From Opitutales bacterium (lineage in GTDB: Bacteria > Verrucomicrobiota > Verrucomicrobiia > Opitutales > Coraliomargaritaceae), in contig JBMYNR010000024.1 of NCBI GenBank assembly GCA_049598495.1, forward strand, positions 5,796-25,608: 19,813 nt of DNA. Reading direction: 5' to 3'. Shown here one piece after another: positions 707 through 19,813 of this stretch. Numbering within the stretch: position 1 is the stretch's first letter; each line of letters starts with the position of its first letter. The position numbers and the translations under genes were made by a program. The notes beneath the pieces are model-generated. The model saw only the letters and a list, made by a program, of their open reading frames with translations. It had not been told where the DNA came from and did no database searches.

Positions 707-1129
707 TCAGCTGGCAGCCTTTTTGTAGTCGTAGCCGGGTGTCGCGTAGCTGGGGGCGAACTGAATGATACTGAAGATAGCCACAATCAGGACCGCGATC
801 TGGTTCTGCGGATAATCCGCACCGATCAGGAACAGACTGAAAAAGATGGGGGCTTCCGAGAATGCCAGTCCTACAATAAGCGCTGTCAGTTGCGCCTGAG
901 CTTGCTTGATCTTGGGGATTACCAGCCAACGAATCGCAGTGGCGACGACCAGCGGCCCAAAGCACATCAACCAGAGCCAGACTGCCATCGGTTCGGCGAT
1001 ATTCTCACCCTCGGGAATACCCTTGCCCAGAAACCACTGGTAGATAAAGGCACCCTGAAGGAAGGCGAACCAGATCACCCACATGACAATGGCATGACCC
1101 TTGGAAGACGGCTGTTTACTTTCGCTCAT
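707..1129 (-). CDS. Hypothetical integral membrane protein (~4 TM helices)
   Basis: About 140 aa with four hydrophobic stretches. ATG at 1129 overlaps the polX 3' end, suggesting coupling. Confidence 0.75.
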
Positions 1130-2846
1130 CAAACCATCTCGCCACACCGGCACAGTCGCGGCAATTCAAAATCTGTTCTGCCGGGATACCTCCCTTGCGA
1201 GCGATGTTCACACCCGCTTCAAAGTGGCGAAGCCCCTCCGTGTTATGAGCGTCCGGATTGATGGCACACATGAGGCCCCTCCCGACCGCGCGCTGCCAGA
1301 GCCGCCAGTCCATATCGAGCCGATGCGGGTTGGCGTTGATCTCAATGATCACCCGATTCGCGATGGCCGCATCGATAATCTTCTGCAGGTCGATCCTGTA
1401 GGGCTCTCGGCGCAGCAGGATCCGCCCCGTCGGGTGCCCGAGCATAACCGTATTTGGATGCTCGATTGCACGGATCACCCGCGCCGTCATCTCCTCCTCG
1501 GACTGGGTGAAACTTGAGTGCACCGACATCACCGTATAATCCAGCGCCTCCAGTGTGGCGTCTTCCAAATCGAGCGACCCATCGGGCAGGATATCGCATT
1601 CAATCCCTGAAAAAACATGTACCCGAGACTCCCCCGATTCATTAAACGCACGGATCTGCTCGATCATTTTCAAGACCCGCTCGTCATTTAAGCCATTCGC
1701 CTGATAGCTCGCCTTCGAGTGGTCGGCCAGCCCGAGGTAATCAAAGCCCAGCGCAGCCGCCGCTTCGGCCATCTCCTCGACACTCGCCCGCCCGTCTGAT
1801 GCGGTGGTGTGGTTGTGAAAGACCCCCCGTATTTGTTCTGAGGATACAAGAGCGGGCAGAATCTTAGCTTCCGCCCAGTCCAGCTCATGAGTCCCCTCCC
1901 GCAACTCCGGCGGAATCTCCGGCAATCCGAGAAATTCGAACAGCTCCTTTTCTGATCCTATTTCAGCTTTCAGTTTTCCCATTTCAGCTTTCGGAGTGAG
2001 CCCCCATTCGCTCAGGCTGTAGCCTTGCGCGAGAGCTCTCTGCCGCATTGCAACATTATGCTCCTTCGATCCCGTAAAATGATGTAGCGCAAAGGCAAAC
2101 TGCTCTGTAGGAACCACACGAAGGTCCGCCTGCAGCCCTGTGCCGAATCGAACGCTCGATTTTGTAGCGCCATGCGCACTCACCTCCTGAACATCTTCCT
2201 GTGCGACAAACCAATCCATGATCGGCTCGGGATCGGATGAGGCGACAATGAAGTCAAGATCGCCCACGGTTTCTTTCAATCGACGCAGACTCCCCGCAGC
2301 CTCCGCACGCTCCACTTGAGGCAGGGCTCGCAGCCCTTCTAGAATCGGTTCTGCGACTGCACGTGCATTCCACCAGAGATGACGCTTCGCGTAGGCCGCT
2401 CGATTGGCGATCCCCGTTAAGATTTTTTCCTGCGACTTCGCGCCAAAGCCTTTGAGCGCTGCCACCTCATCGTTCTCACACGCCTTCTTCAAAGCATCGA
2501 TACTCTCAACGCCGAGCGCTTCGTGAAGCTTCTTCACCTTTTTCCCGCCCAGGCCGGGGATCTCAAGCATCTCTATCAAGCCCGGGGCAATCGATTCACG
2601 TAGCTTGGTATAGTATTCCAACTCACCCGTTGCATGGAGTGTTTTTATCTTATCCACGAGCGCGGATCCGATTCCTTTGATCGCACCGAGGCGCCCCTCC
2701 TCAATCACATCGGCGAGGTTTTCTTCCATCGTCTCCAGCACGCGCGCGCCTCCCGAGTAAGCGCGGATCTTGAACGGGTTGTCCCCCTTCAACTCAAGGA
2801 GCACAGCAATATCTTCGAGGACGTCTACAATGTCTGCTTTGTTCAT
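1116..2846 (-). CDS. polX: Family X DNA polymerase with C-terminal PHP domain
   Basis: NPFKIRAY, HhH motifs ([13 protein letters not shown]), GSLRR..ETVGDLD and QADLRVV catalytic Asp triad, [12 protein letters not shown] motifs HNHT..SDG, DHS, HPTGR, NPDAH. Confidence 0.95.
1961..1995. repeat. Degenerate heptamer array (TTTCAGC-like x5) inside polX
   Basis: TTTCAGC TTTCAGT TTTCCCA TTTCAGC TTTCGGA; translated within [13 protein letters not shown]. Confidence 0.7.
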
Positions 2847-2884
2847 TCGCTACTACGATGCGACCTGGCTTAAAGATGACAAGC

Positions 2885-3024
2885 GTAGGGGCGTTCCTTG
2901 GGACGCCCGCCGTGCGGTCCTTCACATCTTCAGCGGGCGCCGCAAGCGACGCCCCTACGTTTTCCCGATCTACATTCCCCAATCTCGATTCGTCTTGACC
3001 CGGCGCCGCGAGCAACGCCCCTAC
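2885..3024. repeat. 140-bp REP block (family A, GTAGGGGCG..), copy downstream of the RAYT
   Basis: GTAGGGGCGTTCC..GGGACGCCCG unit, then an inverted unit ending GACGCCCCTAC (2958), then a third unit ending AACGCCCCTAC (3024). Ungapped direct repeat of 3571-3710 with 17 mismatches by hand count. Confidence 0.93.
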
Positions 3025-3570
3025 GGTTTTAGATCCTTTTCGATCAAATCTTCGGTGAGCACATCGGCTTCGGTCAACCACTCTTGGGGAGGCCCGCCGG
3101 CAGCATTGAGATGCGAAAAAAACTCGGGCCGGTAGTCATCGCTCAAGTTCCAATACGGCCATGGCTCCTCACACCGAAGCAGGGACTTTCGATAGGGGTT
3201 CAAATAAATATACCGCGCAAAGCCTTCCATCGAATCATCTGTCCGCAGTCGATGGTCGTAGAAATCGCGTTGCCACTTAAGCCCCTCAATGGCGAGGGCT
3301 TCTTTGGTTTTTGCCTTAAACTTCGAAATGCACTTTCCCAAACTCAGTCGCTCACCGAGAGTCAAAAGAAGATGTATATGATCCGGCATCAGCGTGCCGC
3401 ATTCTAAGATGTAATCTTTTTCGACCTCCTGATGCTTCCATACACCGAGGATGGCATTAGCCACCGCTTTGGTTAACAAACTCTGCTCCCGATCCTTCAA
3501 ACAGAGCGTAACAAAGTAGCGAGCTTGGGGAATGGACACACGCCCCAGATAAAGACGGCCTGTCTCTCTT
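3021..3570 (-). mobile_element. REP-associated tyrosine transposase (RAYT / TnpA-REP, Y1 HUH) domain
   Basis: GRVSIP.ARYFVTLC, MPDHIH (HUH), WQRDFYDH, and YIYLNP (catalytic Tyr + NP). Flanked on both sides by GTAG-REPs. Possible independent GTG start at 3611. Confidence 0.92.
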
Positions 3571-4877
3571 GTAGGGGCGTTCCTCGGGACGCCCGCAGTC
3601 TGGTCCTTCACATCTTCAGCGGGCGCCGCAAGCGATGCCCCTGCGGGATATCGAGCTACATTCCCAAATCTCGATCCGTCTTGTCCCAGCGCCGCAAGCG
3701 ACGCCCCTACGTTTTGCAGCTTCGCAGGAATCGCGTCCACCTGGATCAACTTTTTGGGGATCTTGTGAGGAGCCAGAATGCCTGAAAGGCGAAGCTTACA
3801 CACAGCCTGATCGATCAACCGATTGCCTGTGTAAAATGCCACGACGGCCTGCCCCCAATCCTCGTCGGCCTCGCCAACAACAAGCGTCTCTTCAACGCCC
3901 TCAATTTCAAGAAGCGCCGCCTCCACCTCGCCGGGATCGACTTTCTCCCCTCCCGTAATGATCAAGCGGTCTGCCCGGCCGTCGACATGCAAACGGCCAT
4001 TCCCGTCGATTCGACCGAGATCATCCGCGACATAGCCATCGGAGAGCTCGGGCTCGCTGCGACCCTGGTATCCCCGAAATAATGCACTGCCACGGATGCG
4101 TATGCGCCCGTTCTGTTCGATCGAAAATTGCGCATCGCCGAGGGGAACCGCACCCGCCGACGGGTTGCTAAGAAAGTCCGCGTTCGGGATGGCTGCAATC
4201 ATGGCAGCGGTTTCCGTCATGCCGTAGACCGGAACGACCGGGAGCCTGAGGCGCCGAGCCTCTTGAGCGAGGCCCTCCGGCATCGGAGCGCCACCGACAA
4301 ATATGGCGCTAGCAGTATTCAAATTTTGGATACTTACATCATCCTGAAGCGCACGCTGCAACTGAGTCGGCACGAGCGATAGGCAGCGACCGTCGACCGC
4401 ATCCTGATGGAACCGGATGGTTCCACCTGACACGAAGCTGCGAATCAGCTGCATCAGTCCGCTCACATGATAGAGCGGCAGCACGCAGGCTGAATGGATC
4501 GGCCCTCCGCCGAGGAATCCCTGAGTCGCACGTGCGGCGGCCGAGAGACTGGCCCAGTCGTGGATCGCGAGTTTTACCCCGCCTGTCGTGCCCCCGGTTG
4601 GTATTAGGATGGCGCCCGGCTCCGGCGTCTCCAGCGCCATGAGTGTTTCGAACTCGTCGATTTCCTGCGCAGCCCAATTCGGGTTTGGCAGAACGATCGA
4701 CTGGCCCCCGAAGAGTCCTGCGAAGAACTCGACGGCAAAATCGATTGGTTCCGTTGTGCGGATGAGCAAGGGCCCCGCACCGAGCCCGGCACATCGGGCT
4801 TCGACGCGGGCATGGAGGACCTCGCCGGAGATTCCTTCAATCCAGTCGCGCCGCAGCAGCTCTATATCAAATTCCAT
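3021..4877 (-). CDS. menE: In-frame fusion: o-succinylbenzoate-CoA ligase-like ANL enzyme (MenE) + translated REP linker + RAYT transposase
   Basis: The first ~389 aa carry PTGGTTGGVK, LPLYHVSGL, YGMTET, DDLG and GRADRLIITGGEKVDPGEVE, and the gene overlaps menC. About 47 aa are encoded by the REP block, followed by a ~182 aa HUH transposase. No stop codon in between. Confidence 0.85.
   Translation of the reverse strand: MEFDIELLRRDWIEGISGEVLHARVEARCAGLGAGPLLIRTTEPIDFAVEFFAGLFGGQSIVLPNPNWAAQEIDEFETLMALETPEPGAILIPTGGTTGGVKLAIHDWASLSAAARATQGFLGGGPIHSACVLPLYHVSGLMQLIRSFVSGGTIRFHQDAVDGRCLSLVPTQLQRALQDDVSIQNLNTASAIFVGGAPMPEGLAQEARRLRLPVVPVYGMTETAAMIAAIPNADFLSNPSAGAVPLGDAQFSIEQNGRIRIRGSALFRGYQGRSEPELSDGYVADDLGRIDGNGRLHVDGRADRLIITGGEKVDPGEVEAALLEIEGVEETLVVGEADEDWGQAVVAFYTGNRLIDQAVCKLRLSGILAPHKIPKKLIQVDAIPAKLQNVGASLAALGQDGSRFGNVARYPAGASLAAPAEDVKDQTAGVPRNAPTRETGRLYLGRVSIPQARYFVTLCLKDREQSLLTKAVANAILGVWKHQEVEKDYILECGTLMPDHIHLLLTLGERLSLGKCISKFKAKTKEALAIEGLKWQRDFYDHRLRTDDSMEGFARYIYLNPYRKSLLRCEEPWPYWNLSDDYRPEFFSHLNAAGGPPQEWLTEADVLTEDLIEKDLKP
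3571..3710. repeat. 140-bp REP block (family A), copy upstream of the RAYT, translated as the MenE-RAYT linker
   Basis: Same three-unit layout as 2885-3024. Encodes VGASLAALGQDGSRFGNVARYPAGASLAAPAEDVKDQTAGVPRNAPT. Confidence 0.93.
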
Positions 4878-5878
4878 AGGTCCTCAACACTGTAACTAAG
4901 TCGATCCACCGCGCGAATGATGGGCGCGTTTTCAATCGGCTGGAGTCCGTCCTCGAAGGCATTGAGTGTATCGAACCCGACTGGCCGGCTGAGCCCGGGA
5001 AGTGCATCCGCCAGGGACAGGGCATTGGATAGTCCGATCCCCGTCTCAAAGACGGAGGAGATCACGACCTGCTCAGCGAGGGGTCTCAAGCGCTCGCAGA
5101 GCTCTGAAATGTCTCCCATCAACGGGGCCTTGATCACGAGCGGCCCGGGCCAGGCATCCGCCTCGAGCCATTGCACGCCTTTTGTCCCGTTGAGCGATTC
5201 ATCCAGGGCGATCGGAATACCCGTATCACTCATGCACTCGGCCATGCGCGCCTCCTCGCCCACCGCCAGGGGCTGCTCAAGATAGTCCAGTTGCTCACGG
5301 TGCTCCGAGAGAAACTCCACCCAGCCCTTCAATTCCTCCGAAGCGAGGCTCGCGTTCGCATCCAAACGCAGCTTCACCCCCGTCGGCAAGGAGCGGAAGA
5401 GCTGTGCCGCATGCTCGAGCTCGACCTTGAGCGACTCGACACCGATCTTCCATTTCAGGCAGCGATAGCCCGATGCCATCTTCTGGGCGGCGATCGCATG
5501 CACGGCGGAACCCGCCGGAAGTAATGCGGAAACTTCATAATCTTTGGTAGGGACGGCTGCCCTCAGCCGTCCACGACTTTGAGCGGACGCTTGAGGACGA
5601 ACGTCCCTACCTGCAGCGGAGAGTGCAAAGGCGCAACAAGGGTGGTCTGCCGGCACAGCTAAATCAGGCTCGAGAACCAGCTCCTCCAGAAACGCGCCTG
5701 CGGAATCAACCGTCTCGGTAGCAAACTCCGGGATCGGTGCCACCTCGCCGTAGCCGATCTGCCCGTCTTCTTCGACCCGAACAACATAGCCTTCCCGAAC
5801 CGACCATTCACCAAGAGCTGTCTTCAGCGGACGCTTAAATCTGCGCCGGTAGGATTTCACTGCGATTTGGCGGGGCAT
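4862..5878 (-). CDS. menC: o-succinylbenzoate synthase (enolase superfamily)
   Basis: GYGEVAPIP, KWKIG (KxK), LRLDAN, YLEQPL, IALDES and VISSVFETGIG motifs; directly upstream of menE. ATG at 5878 is preferred because the 5938 start lies in a REP. Confidence 0.9.
   Translation of the reverse strand: MPRQIAVKSYRRRFKRPLKTALGEWSVREGYVVRVEEDGQIGYGEVAPIPEFATETVDSAGAFLEELVLEPDLAVPADHPCCAFALSAAGRDVRPQASAQSRGRLRAAVPTKDYEVSALLPAGSAVHAIAAQKMASGYRCLKWKIGVESLKVELEHAAQLFRSLPTGVKLRLDANASLASEELKGWVEFLSEHREQLDYLEQPLAVGEEARMAECMSDTGIPIALDESLNGTKGVQWLEADAWPGPLVIKAPLMGDISELCERLRPLAEQVVISSVFETGIGLSNALSLADALPGLSRPVGFDTLNAFEDGLQPIENAPIIRAVDRLSYSVEDLWNLI
5546..5611. repeat. REP doublet (family B, GTAGGGACG..) in frame inside menC
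   Basis: GGTAGGGACG ... CGTCCCTACC 10-bp terminal inverted repeat, with internal hairpin GGACGGCTG-CCCT-CAGCCGTCC. 66 bp = 22 codons. Confidence 0.85.
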
Positions 5879-5898
5879 TTCAGTCCGTTTTACCAAAA

Positions 5899-5974
5899 GT
5901 AGGGGTGTCGCTTGCGGCACCCGCCATATGCAAAGCACCTATCATGACTCGGGCGTTGCAAGCAACGCCCCTAC
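5899..5974. repeat. REP doublet (REPIN), family A
   Basis: GTAGGGGTGTCGCTTGCGGCACCCG ... CGGGCGTTGCAAGCAACGCCCCTAC between divergent menC and guaB. Confidence 0.9.
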
Positions 5975-6073
5975 GGCCACCGCATGGGGCAACCATTGTT
6001 TTGCTAGTAATCATTTCGGCAGACACAGTCATTTCCTACTTGAGAAAAGACAATCTTTTGCTGTAGTCGGAAC

Positions 6074-7648
6074 ATGAAAGCACCTCGAATCGAAGACTAC
6101 TATCAGACTGCGGATCTGTTCTTCCAGCACAACTTGCCCGTTGGCTTGACTTACGACGATGTTTCGTTGGCCACGCTCTACTCTGAAGTGCTCCCCCGCC
6201 AGACCAACTTGGCCACCCGGCTCTCGAGCTCGCTCGAGCTGCAGATCCCGATCATCTCATCCGACATGGATACGGTGACGGAATCCAAAATGGCCATCCA
6301 AATGGCGCTCAACGGAGGCCTCGGCCTCATTCACTACAACATGAGCGATGAGAAACAGGTGCGCGAAGTCGCCCGGGTGAAGAACCACATTCACGGCTTC
6401 ATTCAGGAACCGATCAAAGTTCAACCCGAACAGAAGATCGGCGAAGTTATCGACCGCATCGCCGACCGTGGTTATGGATTCAGCACCTTCCCGGTGGTTG
6501 ACGACCAAGGCCATCTGCTCGGCCTACTTCCGGGCCGCGTGGTCAAGGCCCGCTACGCCGAGCGCCTTGTCTCCGAGGCCATGTCTCCCCGCGACCAAGT
6601 CTACACCCTCAGAGAGACCGAGATTAAGCACAACCCTATCAAGACTGCTGACCAGTTCTTCACGGATCATCTCGGCATCCATAAGCTCTTGGTCGTCGAC
6701 GATGAGGACCGCCTTCGTGGTCTATTCACCCTCTCCGATATCGAGCGTATCGAGGCGGAATCTCAGCAGTCAGTAAAGCCCGCTCGAGATAGTGAGTTTC
6801 GCCTCATGTGCGGCGCCGCGATTTCCGCCCACCGCAAGCCCGATGGCGAACTCGACCGCGATCGCATCCTCAAACATGTCGGTCAACTCGTCGATGAGGG
6901 GGTGGATGCTGTGGCCGTCTCAACTGCTCACGGTTTCTCCAAGGGCGTCGGCGATGCGATCCGTATGCTTCGAAACGAATTCAAAGACCTCACCCTGATC
7001 GCCGGCAACGTCACTAGCGCCGAAGGTGTCGAGTTTCTGGCCGATGCCGGTGCCAACACCATAAAGATCGGACAAGGCCCCGGATCGATCTGCACCACCC
7101 GCGTCGTCGCCGGGGTCGGCATCCCGCAGATGACCGCCCTCCACTGCGCCTCCATTGCTGCCCGAAAGAAGGGTGTGACCACGCTGGCTGACGGAGGAAT
7201 TACCAAATCCGGAGATATGGTCAAAGCGCTCACCCTCGCGGATGGCGTCATGTGCGGCAGCCTCCTCGCAGGATGCAACGAAGCCCCCGGGCAAATCATC
7301 GAAATTAACGGCAAACTTTATAAACAATACCGCGGCATGGGCAGCAACGCTGCCATGAAAGACGGTTCCGCCGCCCGCTACGGGCACGACCGTAAGGATG
7401 TGGCCACCAAGGCCGCGGCCGAAGGCATCGAAGCCCTCAAGGAAGCCGCGGGATCCCTGAGTGGCGTACTCCGCGAACTCGTTGGCGGAATTCAATCCGG
7501 CATGGGCTATCTCGGCGCCGCGAATCTTAAGGAGCTGCGCGCCAATGCCAGATACATCCGTGTTAGCCCTGCAGGTCAACGTGAGTCCGCACCTCACGAT
7601 GTCATCACCGTGAAGACGAGTGACCTATCCGGTGACGCGGCGAAATGA
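6074..7648 (+). CDS. guaB: IMP dehydrogenase with CBS pair
   Basis: [36 protein letters not shown] (catalytic Cys), [30 protein letters not shown]. Confidence 0.97.
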
Positions 7649-8755: not shown

Positions 8756-8848
8756 CGTCGACGCATGAAGGGTTCCGAACAAGCGGAAGCGCCTGTCCGT
8801 CGACCTTGCTGGCGCAAGGTCGCTACCTCGTGCCGTGTGTCGCGATGC
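8756..8848 (-). repeat. ~95-bp GTAG-REP unit (family C)
   Basis: Reverse complement reads ..GTAGCGACCTTGCGCCAGCAAGGTCGACGGACAGGCGC..AACCCTTCATGCGTCGACG, homologous to the tandem copies at 19644-19813. Confidence 0.85.
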
Positions 8849-16953: not shown

Positions 16954-16981
16954 TTCATCTAATTTAGACAAATTAGATGAA
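16954..16981. promoter_or_regulatory. Perfect 12-bp inverted repeat, probable TA autoregulatory operator
   Basis: TTCATCTAATTT-AGAC-AAATTAGATGAA, overlapping the antitoxin start region. Confidence 0.75.
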
Positions 16982-17252
16982 CATGAACTCCGTTACAGCG
17001 AATACAGCGAAGCAAAACTTCGGCGAACTCATTGATCAGGCGCAGAAGGGCCCTATTTCCGTCACCAAACACGGGCGCCCTTCCGTCGTCGTGACTTCAG
17101 CGTCCGAGTATCGTGAATTGATGGCCTTTAAACACGCCCATTTGAAGGCTGAGGTCGCGGCAGGATTGGATCAATTGGATCGGGGAGAGATCTCGACCCG
17201 CTCTGCTCAGGAGATTGCGGCAGCCGTTTTAGAGAACAACACAGCGGGGTAG
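16977..17252 (+). CDS. Type II antitoxin, Phd/YefM N-terminus
   Basis: VTANTAKQNFGELIDQAQ..PI.VTKHGRP.VVV.S..EY. The true start may be 16983. Confidence 0.88.
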   Translation: MNMNSVTANTAKQNFGELIDQAQKGPISVTKHGRPSVVVTSASEYRELMAFKHAHLKAEVAAGLDQLDRGEISTRSAQEIAAAVLENNTAG

Positions 17253-17255
17253 GTT

Positions 17256-17579
17256 TTGGCCGACTACATTCTTTCCAAAAGCGCCGACGAAGATCTCAAG
17301 TGTATCTTCGAATACACTCTCGAAACATGGGGCGCCGACCAGCTCGCCATCTACGCGCTTCAGCTCGGTGCGGCTCTGCGCCAGATTGCCGGAGACCCGA
17401 CCCACCCCCGCAGCAAAACCCGCGAAGACCTTGCAGCTGGATGTCGAACCTTTCCTGTGGGTCACCACTTCATTGTTTACCGGGTCAATCGGGGACGGGT
17501 TGAGGTCGCGCGGATACTTCACGAGCGGATGGACTTTGAAAACAAAGCCGTAGAAACTGACTTCCCGAACAGACCCTAA
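17256..17579 (+). CDS. Type II toxin, ParE/RelE family
   Basis: Y.LS..A.EDL..I..YT...WG..Q...Y, REDL..GCR.FPVG.H.IVYR......EV.RILH.RMD; 3 bp after the antitoxin. Confidence 0.9.
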   Translation: MADYILSKSADEDLKCIFEYTLETWGADQLAIYALQLGAALRQIAGDPTHPRSKTREDLAAGCRTFPVGHHFIVYRVNRGRVEVARILHERMDFENKAVETDFPNRP

Positions 17580-19643: not shown

Positions 19644-19813
19644 CGCTACACACGCTACGACGTAGCAAACTTGCGCCAGCAAGGTCGACGGACAAGCGCC
19701 CTCGCCTGTTCAAAACCCTTCATACGTCGACGCGACGGGCATCGCATCGCTACACACATACGACGTAGCAAACTTGCGCCAGCAAGGTCGACGGACAAGC
19801 GCCCTCGCCTGTT
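19644..19813 (+). repeat. Tandem 103-bp-period GTAG-REP units (family C), truncated by the window end
   Basis: TACGACGTAGCAAACTTGCGCCAGCAAGGTCGACGGACAAGCGCCCTCGCCTGTT is identical at 19656-19710 and 19759-19813. Confidence 0.9.

Follow-up and report, generated by a model that had tools for sequence, protein, structure and literature searches.

The window analyzed here, a 19,813-nt stretch of a contig from an Opitutales bacterium of the family Coraliomargaritaceae, contains a single open frame (3021..4877, minus strand; 618 codons, 618 aa) in which a MenE-like ligase is joined to a RAYT (TnpA-REP) domain through a peptide translated from a block of REPs. The fusion recurs in relatives, and its RAYT part has lost the start codon that its stand-alone kin possess. 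We consider it probable that this RAYT borrows the transcript and the start codon of menC-menE and that it is likely an ordinary REP nuclease, with MenE as its carrier. An earlier note, made from the letters of this stretch, had proposed that the RAYT is made as a fusion from the menC-menE unit; we uphold that proposal as what we infer for a RAYT without a usable start of its own.

The fused frame and its domains

The frame begins with an ANL ligase of the MenE type (aa 1-389; 3711..4877, minus strand), continues through a 140-nt translated REP block (aa 390-436, 47 aa; 3571..3710, minus strand) that is predicted to be disordered, and ends with the RAYT domain (aa 437-618; 3021..3569, minus strand). 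This is the layout that the earlier note had given, with about 389, about 47, and the remaining residues for the three parts, and the 618-codon frame itself is borne out by the stop-free ORF list, by domain models, and by contigs from four runs. Pfam places AMP-binding at 83-270, AMP-binding_C at 317-385, and Y1_Tnp at 451-531, and the NCBIfam model REP_Tyr_transpos (NF047646) spans aa 445-576 and scores 87.3 bits (cut-off, 80). Hint is not among the three families recovered in the Pfam scan of the 618-aa fusion, which is thus without an intein splicing domain.

The stretch is contained wholly or partly in 20 of 24 listed runs, from 15 studies, and the contigs of four runs (four studies, among them that of the possible source run) were aligned over the locus, a contig-level comparison in which rare alleles are invisible. 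All four cross the MenE-REP junction without a gap, so that the indel by which the earlier note thought the frame might be explained away is absent, and none of the 17 substitutions listed inside the ORF in the contig comparison introduces a stop. In one run (X11) the entire ORF lies on one record, with an insertion of 41+16 = 57 nt in the linker; 637-aa database proteins show the same 19-residue gain, an in-frame extra REP unit in one strain. The six-member protein cluster of the window includes four proteins with the longer linker (three of 637 aa and one with a later start), one of 618 aa, and, at the 90% level, a 387-aa MenE from which the tail is absent (P0011). The window's genome comprises 1.75 Mb in 73 contigs, and the one RNA run among those listed shares 5% (0.05) of the words of the stretch.

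For the ligase half, MenE models rank first, with scores below their cut-offs (269.6 vs 525 and 181.8 vs 330), and MenE structures are also the top matches. The genome carries menC, menB, and menD, the latter two above cut-off, and a search of it found no closer menE copy, its other ANL genes being 26-27% identical. The active-site residue K471 of Bacillus subtilis MenE (accessible text of PMC11619455) corresponds to V390, at the canonical C-terminal lysine position; K386 lies four residues earlier, and the window MenE, if it is active, may act through it. The P-x3/4-GK motif is retained by most other fusions and is absent from 20 of 55 relatives, including whole stand-alone lineages; because these stand-alone relatives also lack it, its loss is not specific to the window fusion. 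Stand-alone MenE lineages without the canonical lysine end a few residues past K-x-P-K (window 3711-3730 and relatives). In several relatives, a loop close to MenE residue 85 has also taken up REP-like sequence (alignment A1, columns 100-150).

The motifs of the RAYT half are intact, as had been claimed, with DHIH, WQRDFYDH, and YIYLNP all present. Its HUH motif is H500-I-H502, whose two histidines do not vary across 16 rows of fusions and 35 of RAYTs; the catalytic tyrosine, likewise invariant, lies in Y556-x3-N560-P561, which a profile alignment pairs with YIYINP of the Escherichia coli protein 4ER8; and the N-terminal threonine is T457, with serine instead in one fusion (P0008). In place of the signature NP(L/V)(R/K)xG given in the available text of PMC2817692, the second motif reads NPYRKSL across the whole subfamily, stand-alone members included. 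The domain is modeled with a pLDDT of 89 and has E. coli TnpA-REP (4ER8) as its top structural match (E = 3e-10; rmsd, 2.8 A), and the linker is modeled with a pLDDT of 20-27. A complex prediction for the MenE and RAYT domains gave a score of 0.00, which we counted neither for nor against an association. GTAG REP blocks flank the RAYT on both sides, its stop codon TAG falling within the GTAG foot of the REP that follows, and the genome holds 27-31 copies of the REP, depending on the pattern used. We rejected an IS200/IS605 insertion sequence as the identity of the element: several copies at unrelated sites would be expected, and we found one copy per genome, always behind menE.

Recurrence of the fusion, start codons, and selection

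The RAYT part, searched against proteins of 339-1082 aa (567 candidates), recovered eight matches, all with MenE domains, and in a profile search MenE-RAYT clusters made up 10 of 21 matches, with the type found in genomes G005 and G007 as an eleventh; the fusion thus recurs in at least 11 protein clusters. Since a search of long proteins sees fusions only, genomes were also searched in six frames. Among 101 genomes of the family, MenE was found in 94, a close RAYT in 22, and both in one open frame in 5; a sixth case (G018) is split by the assembly at a 28-nt overlap inside the linker. The 79 metagenome loci kept include four whole fusions and one locus (L110) that is out of frame and has lost two thirds of its RAYT. 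Across 401 genomes sampled evenly from the order, frames over 600 aa are confined to this family. Among the best 150 matches of a representative search, 3 exceed 310 aa, namely, two MenE fusions and a protein with a long N-terminal part (P0102), and the RAYT subfamily is therefore mostly stand-alone. The fusion is present in named isolates, in one of them on a 4.7-Mb contig, and cultured Coraliomargarita isolates carry it (WP_458263846 and WP_458280600).

A tree of 39 rows unites the 12 fused RAYTs in one clade (support, 96/97), and on this tree they share a single origin. In a quick tree of MenE (60 rows), which is itself subject to exchange by recombination, the fused MenEs are scattered within a group of 45 rows, mixed with unfused ones. 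Outgroup MenEs mostly end in GK and a short helix, and this helix is missing from the fusions. In seven RAYT-less genomes (G001, G003, G008, G010, G013, G015, and G017), MenE stops inside what is left of the REP arm that in carriers lies behind the RAYT. A list of the 120 closest MenE proteins contains 6 fusions and 43 proteins with this stub at their end (two matches to the REP-tail pattern, P0183 and P0184, are false). One further MenE (G073) reads on in frame into a REP where the contig stops; that genome, 88% complete, yielded no close RAYT, and the case was excluded from the fusion count. We read this distribution as that of an ancestral fusion that was lost repeatedly, with many sister lineages probably now keeping only the REP stub.

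All 26 stand-alone kin have a start (ATG in 23 and GTG in 3) 5-13 codons before the R-x-T motif; these are the 27 non-MenE loci minus one with a PrmC frame, in which a GTG lies at -6 (L060). No ATG occurs within 25 codons of this motif at any of the 10 fused loci, which represent about six lineages; the earlier note had observed the lack of an ATG for the window RAYT. The companion statement that GTG 3611 is the sole nearby alternative does not hold: a second in-frame GTG is found at codon 447 (3539), 3' of residues that are invariant in all fusions. Because one of 19 fusion proteins (P0004) has a methionine seven residues before R-x-T and 4 of the 10 loci have TTG at -3, internal starts could be used there. 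We also considered and rejected a canonical REPtron, i.e., a stand-alone RAYT with its own start and extragenic REPs, as a description of the locus; ATG is absent in 10 of 10 fused loci and the upstream REPs are coding.

Omega is estimated at 0.110 in the fused RAYTs (nine sequences), at 0.107 in the MenE parts (eight), and at 0.086 in the stand-alone RAYTs (14 of the 26), with dS between lineages at 1.8 or more or saturated. By these estimates the fused RAYT is under purifying selection, much like MenE.

RAYTs also occur on other host genes. Four proteins have a sister RAYT in frame behind a PrmC methyltransferase (L060:1498-2997, minus strand, and P0021-P0023; 61-73% identity to the first), which is a second fusion, independent of MenE-RAYT; the copy in genome G021 has lost part of the RAYT N terminus. 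Within CarB, an acyl-CoA synthetase, and a flavin oxidoreductase, repeat-like peptides bracket more distant RAYT-like domains that are read in frame, and such a domain also stands in front of a uracil-DNA glycosylase (P0025, P0026, P0027, P0029, and P0030), and restriction-modification enzymes too contain such domains in frame.

REP blocks and the surrounding locus

The linker block is composed of two REPs (starts, 3710 and 3644) and one inverted REP (end, 3571), and the block downstream of the RAYT (2885..3024, minus strand) is a direct repeat of it (87% over 145 nt; 122 of 140 positions alike). The corresponding figures for upstream and downstream blocks are 74 of 77 in G093 and 68 of 74 in G007, and at one metagenome locus (L096) only 49 of 75 positions are alike. 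Between lineages the blocks are mostly less alike than such a pair within a genome, and this difference suggests that the linker is continually rewritten. Its frame has been kept throughout. Seven different block lengths (77-257 nt) are found among eight DNA loci, every one of them 2 mod 3; the frame used is stop-free at all eight, versus two to five stops in the frame that reads TAG. The 19 fusion proteins have 13 different linker lengths of about 25 to 90 residues, all in frame, those of five proteins being counted with four residues that precede the REP. If each change of length had a one-third chance of keeping the frame, six would all do so about once in 700 times, a figure to which survivorship applies, since a copy that fell out of frame would decay. 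Taken singly, a locus tells little on this point, because 4 of 11 other REP doublets in the window's genome are also 2 mod 3. The predicted RNA fold of the linker region is not stronger than those of shuffled sequences (z = -0.30).

A census of REPs across the family provides an indirect view of activity. One linker REP type is present in 107 (G006), 42 (G007), 36 (G018), 33 (G005), and 24 (G093) copies and in 0-4 copies in the other 96 family genomes, i.e., it is abundant exactly where the fusion carries it; the pattern was taken from fused linkers, and the five rich genomes include three that are closely related and are without exception large (3.2-5.4 Mb). The window's own linker REP type has 27 copies in its genome, is abundant also in genomes with stand-alone relatives, and is common in three genomes with no close RAYT match (G064, G102, and G108). 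Among the five RAYT/Y1-like genes of the window's genome, the linker REP flanks only the MenE-fused one. We regard the census as the usual sign of a working RAYT, indirect and weakened by kinship and genome size. The other four genes (C5:30-413, C57:5210-5422, C12:8429-8689, and C2:37212-37394) are without flanking linker REPs; three of them have repeats of their own nearby, and the C12 frame contains three copies of a translated 11-residue repeat.

Upstream of the fusion lies menC (4862..5878, minus strand; likely start, ATG 5878), whose 3' end overlaps the ATG of the fusion by 16 nt, which suggests translational coupling of the two. A REP doublet of a second family, with about 30 copies in the genome, lies in frame inside menC (5546..5611), and a noncoding doublet of the linker REP family lies upstream of it (5899..5974). 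The usual downstream neighbor is a polX-PHP gene (1116..2846, minus strand). About 30 nt before its ATG, 6 of 8 fused loci have conserved the hexamer TTGTCA (2877-2882), as have sisters that bear the stub (window 2847-2882); it may be polX's own promoter, giving a nearly leaderless transcript. A promoter scan of 2800-6100 returned 0 sites.

The locus also bears marks of recombination. In G093, polX groups with its own genus (with G089; support, 98), menE groups with that of another genus (G010), and the RAYT falls inside the fused clade, a combination that looks like lateral replacement of the locus. Between the loci L096 and L100, a 1.9-kb menC-menE tract (about 1500-3400 in L096) is ~70% identical, versus 90-100% in the flanks and 94-99% over RAYT and polX, a pattern that we interpret as a recent homologous replacement.

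Elsewhere in the window, a tandem array of the heptamer CATCGAA (1-70) stands directly 5' of an ORF for an RsmD-like methyltransferase (96-704). A third repeat family (55-89 nt) has direct and inverted copies, 84-100% alike, at 8756-8844 and 19644-19813. Two adjacent small ORFs of 91 and 107 aa (16977-17579) resemble what we take to be an antitoxin-toxin pair of the Phd and ParE/RelE kinds.

Readings of the fusion and comparison with described systems

We propose the following course of events. A REP-RAYT-REP unit would have settled once at the 3' end of menE, just past the catalytic-lysine motif, where it probably took the place of the last helix of MenE. Translation of the upstream REP would have used the frame in which its GTAG foot gives no TAG codon, and the RAYT presumably lost its ATG. 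Thereafter the REP block would have been rewritten many times and held similar to the downstream block with its frame kept, and loss of the frame or deletion of the RAYT would have left a REP-derived stub on MenE. An intact RAYT domain thus stands in one frame behind MenE, with the RAYT's own REP hairpins as the connection; the whole is probably translated as one protein, and the RAYT likely has no other source than this MenE tail. There it would cleave REP hairpins as an ordinary RAYT does, with MenE contributing expression only, and the fusion would likely supply the enzyme that spreads the linker REPs.

An unlikely alternative to a carrier that supplies expression is that the cassette is a selfish passenger of a homing-like kind that stays unspliced: its RAYT would nick the REP stub of menE alleles that lack the cassette, recombination would restore the cassette, and selection would act on the element, not on the host. 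The discordance of menE and polX in G093, which points to lateral replacement of the locus, the commonness of REP stubs as potential targets, and the scatter of fused among unfused MenEs are what such a passenger would be expected to produce. However, the large stub-bearing clade (43 of the 120 listed proteins) is still empty, each genome has a single copy at one locus, and the divergent tract between L096 and L100 is menC-menE, with RAYT and polX 94-99% alike, so that recombination need not center on the RAYT. A wider formulation, which we hold to be fairly unlikely, treats REP-RAYT-REP as a nonsplicing, intein-like homing element. As the protein tail of a housekeeping enzyme, it would write its own DNA target into the frame of the host, and by nicking the REP stub it would return to menE alleles that had been emptied; the clades on MenE and on PrmC, together with the CarB and acyl-CoA synthetase inserts, would then be independent cases of one undescribed RAYT way of life.

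We consider it very unlikely that the two enzymes are partners, such that the nuclease answers to the ligand state, oligomer, or location of MenE and REP processing is thereby linked to menaquinone synthesis. The long life of the fusion and the equal constraint on its two parts would suit this idea, but they are joined by a predicted disordered linker of about 25 to 90 residues, MenE has been exchanged between lineages with the RAYT retained, a sister RAYT sits on the unrelated host PrmC in four proteins, and the RAYT is absent from most relatives. None of the results of these analyses shows a functional partnership, and it has little support.

That the RAYT is made separately, by an internal non-AUG start or by proteolysis of the linker, with the open frame incidental, strikes us as highly improbable. 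The window does have GTG 3611 and 3539, TTG lies at -3 in 4 of 10 fused loci, P0004 has its methionine, and a disordered linker could be cut. Against this, no candidate start is common to the fusions, with none within 25 codons in G005, G007, G018, G006, and L098; the invariant residues R437, T439, L442, G445, and R446 lie 5' of the second GTG; and retention of the frame over 13 linker lengths would go unexplained. Scarcely credible is an artifact of assembly or a neutral read-through of recent date in a single strain, the "accident" that the earlier note had entertained: the tail-less P0011 does fall in the same 90% cluster, but the indel is absent in 4 of 4 runs, the fusion recurs in named isolates, including on the 4.7-Mb contig, and we reject an accident because the fusion is shared by lineages with saturated synonymous sites, its RAYT is under purifying selection (omega, 0.11), and its frame has outlasted the turnover of the linker.

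With a RAYT expressed as the tail of its carrier MenE, the expression of a RAYT would be tied to a known gene, and the linker would provide a record of REP turnover under the constraint of a frame. The mode of RAYT expression and long-term selection on single copies are an open question in the accessible texts of PMC5581495 and PMC3733652. Close sisters are available with the fusion, with a decaying copy, and with a stub alone; together with the cultured Coraliomargarita carriers, these states make a nuclease role in REP maintenance and a gain to the host testable. The case also shows that a long RAYT protein dismissed as an annotation error can be genuine and ancient.

No published description of a MenE-RAYT fusion was found in our literature searches, which covered mainly the main texts of openly accessible articles, and the fusion is apparently undescribed; the earlier note, too, knew of none. 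In the accessible part of PMC6006769, Quentin et al. (2018) set aside long TnpA-Y1 proteins, discarding them without analysis, and the supplementary files of that study may list some fusions. With respect to the MenE half, B. subtilis o-succinylbenzoate-CoA ligase (5BUQ/5X8F; available text of PMC11619455) shares the ANL fold, provides the best sequence and structure matches, and like the window protein belongs to a type that here adjoins menC; in contrast to it, the window MenE is shorter, has REP-coded sequence instead of the last helix, and has a valine at the position of K471.

The REPs recall those of Opitutus terrae and others, in which GTAG REPs inside genes are described (PMC3733652 and PMC3184786, as far as accessible); in both settings, proteins of Verrucomicrobia contain REP singles or doublets in frame, internally or terminally. 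PMC3733652, in its accessible text, proposes RAYT expression from upstream read-through transcripts and notes REPs that overlap the ends of RAYT genes. The cases described there add 20-30 repeat residues to the host protein, and the proposed read-through is one of transcription, whereas here a whole nuclease is in frame. RAYTs are described as single genes between REPs in the accessible portions of PMC2817692, PMC5581495, PMC8266576, and bioRxiv 10.1101/2021.07.10.451892. The fused RAYT resembles such a REPtron (E. coli YafM, PDB code 4ER8; PMC2817692, PMC8266576, and PMC5581495, in the parts available) in the HUH motif, the tyrosine beside NP, the N-terminal threonine, and the fold, and further in the GTAG-footed REPs on both sides, the matching genome-wide REP family, the single copy, and purifying selection. 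It differs from the REPtron described there in reading NPY(R/Q)K(S/E)L instead of NP(L/V)(R/K)xG after the tyrosine, in having no start codon of its own, in upstream REPs that are coding and form a linker, and in being the C-terminal domain of a metabolic enzyme.
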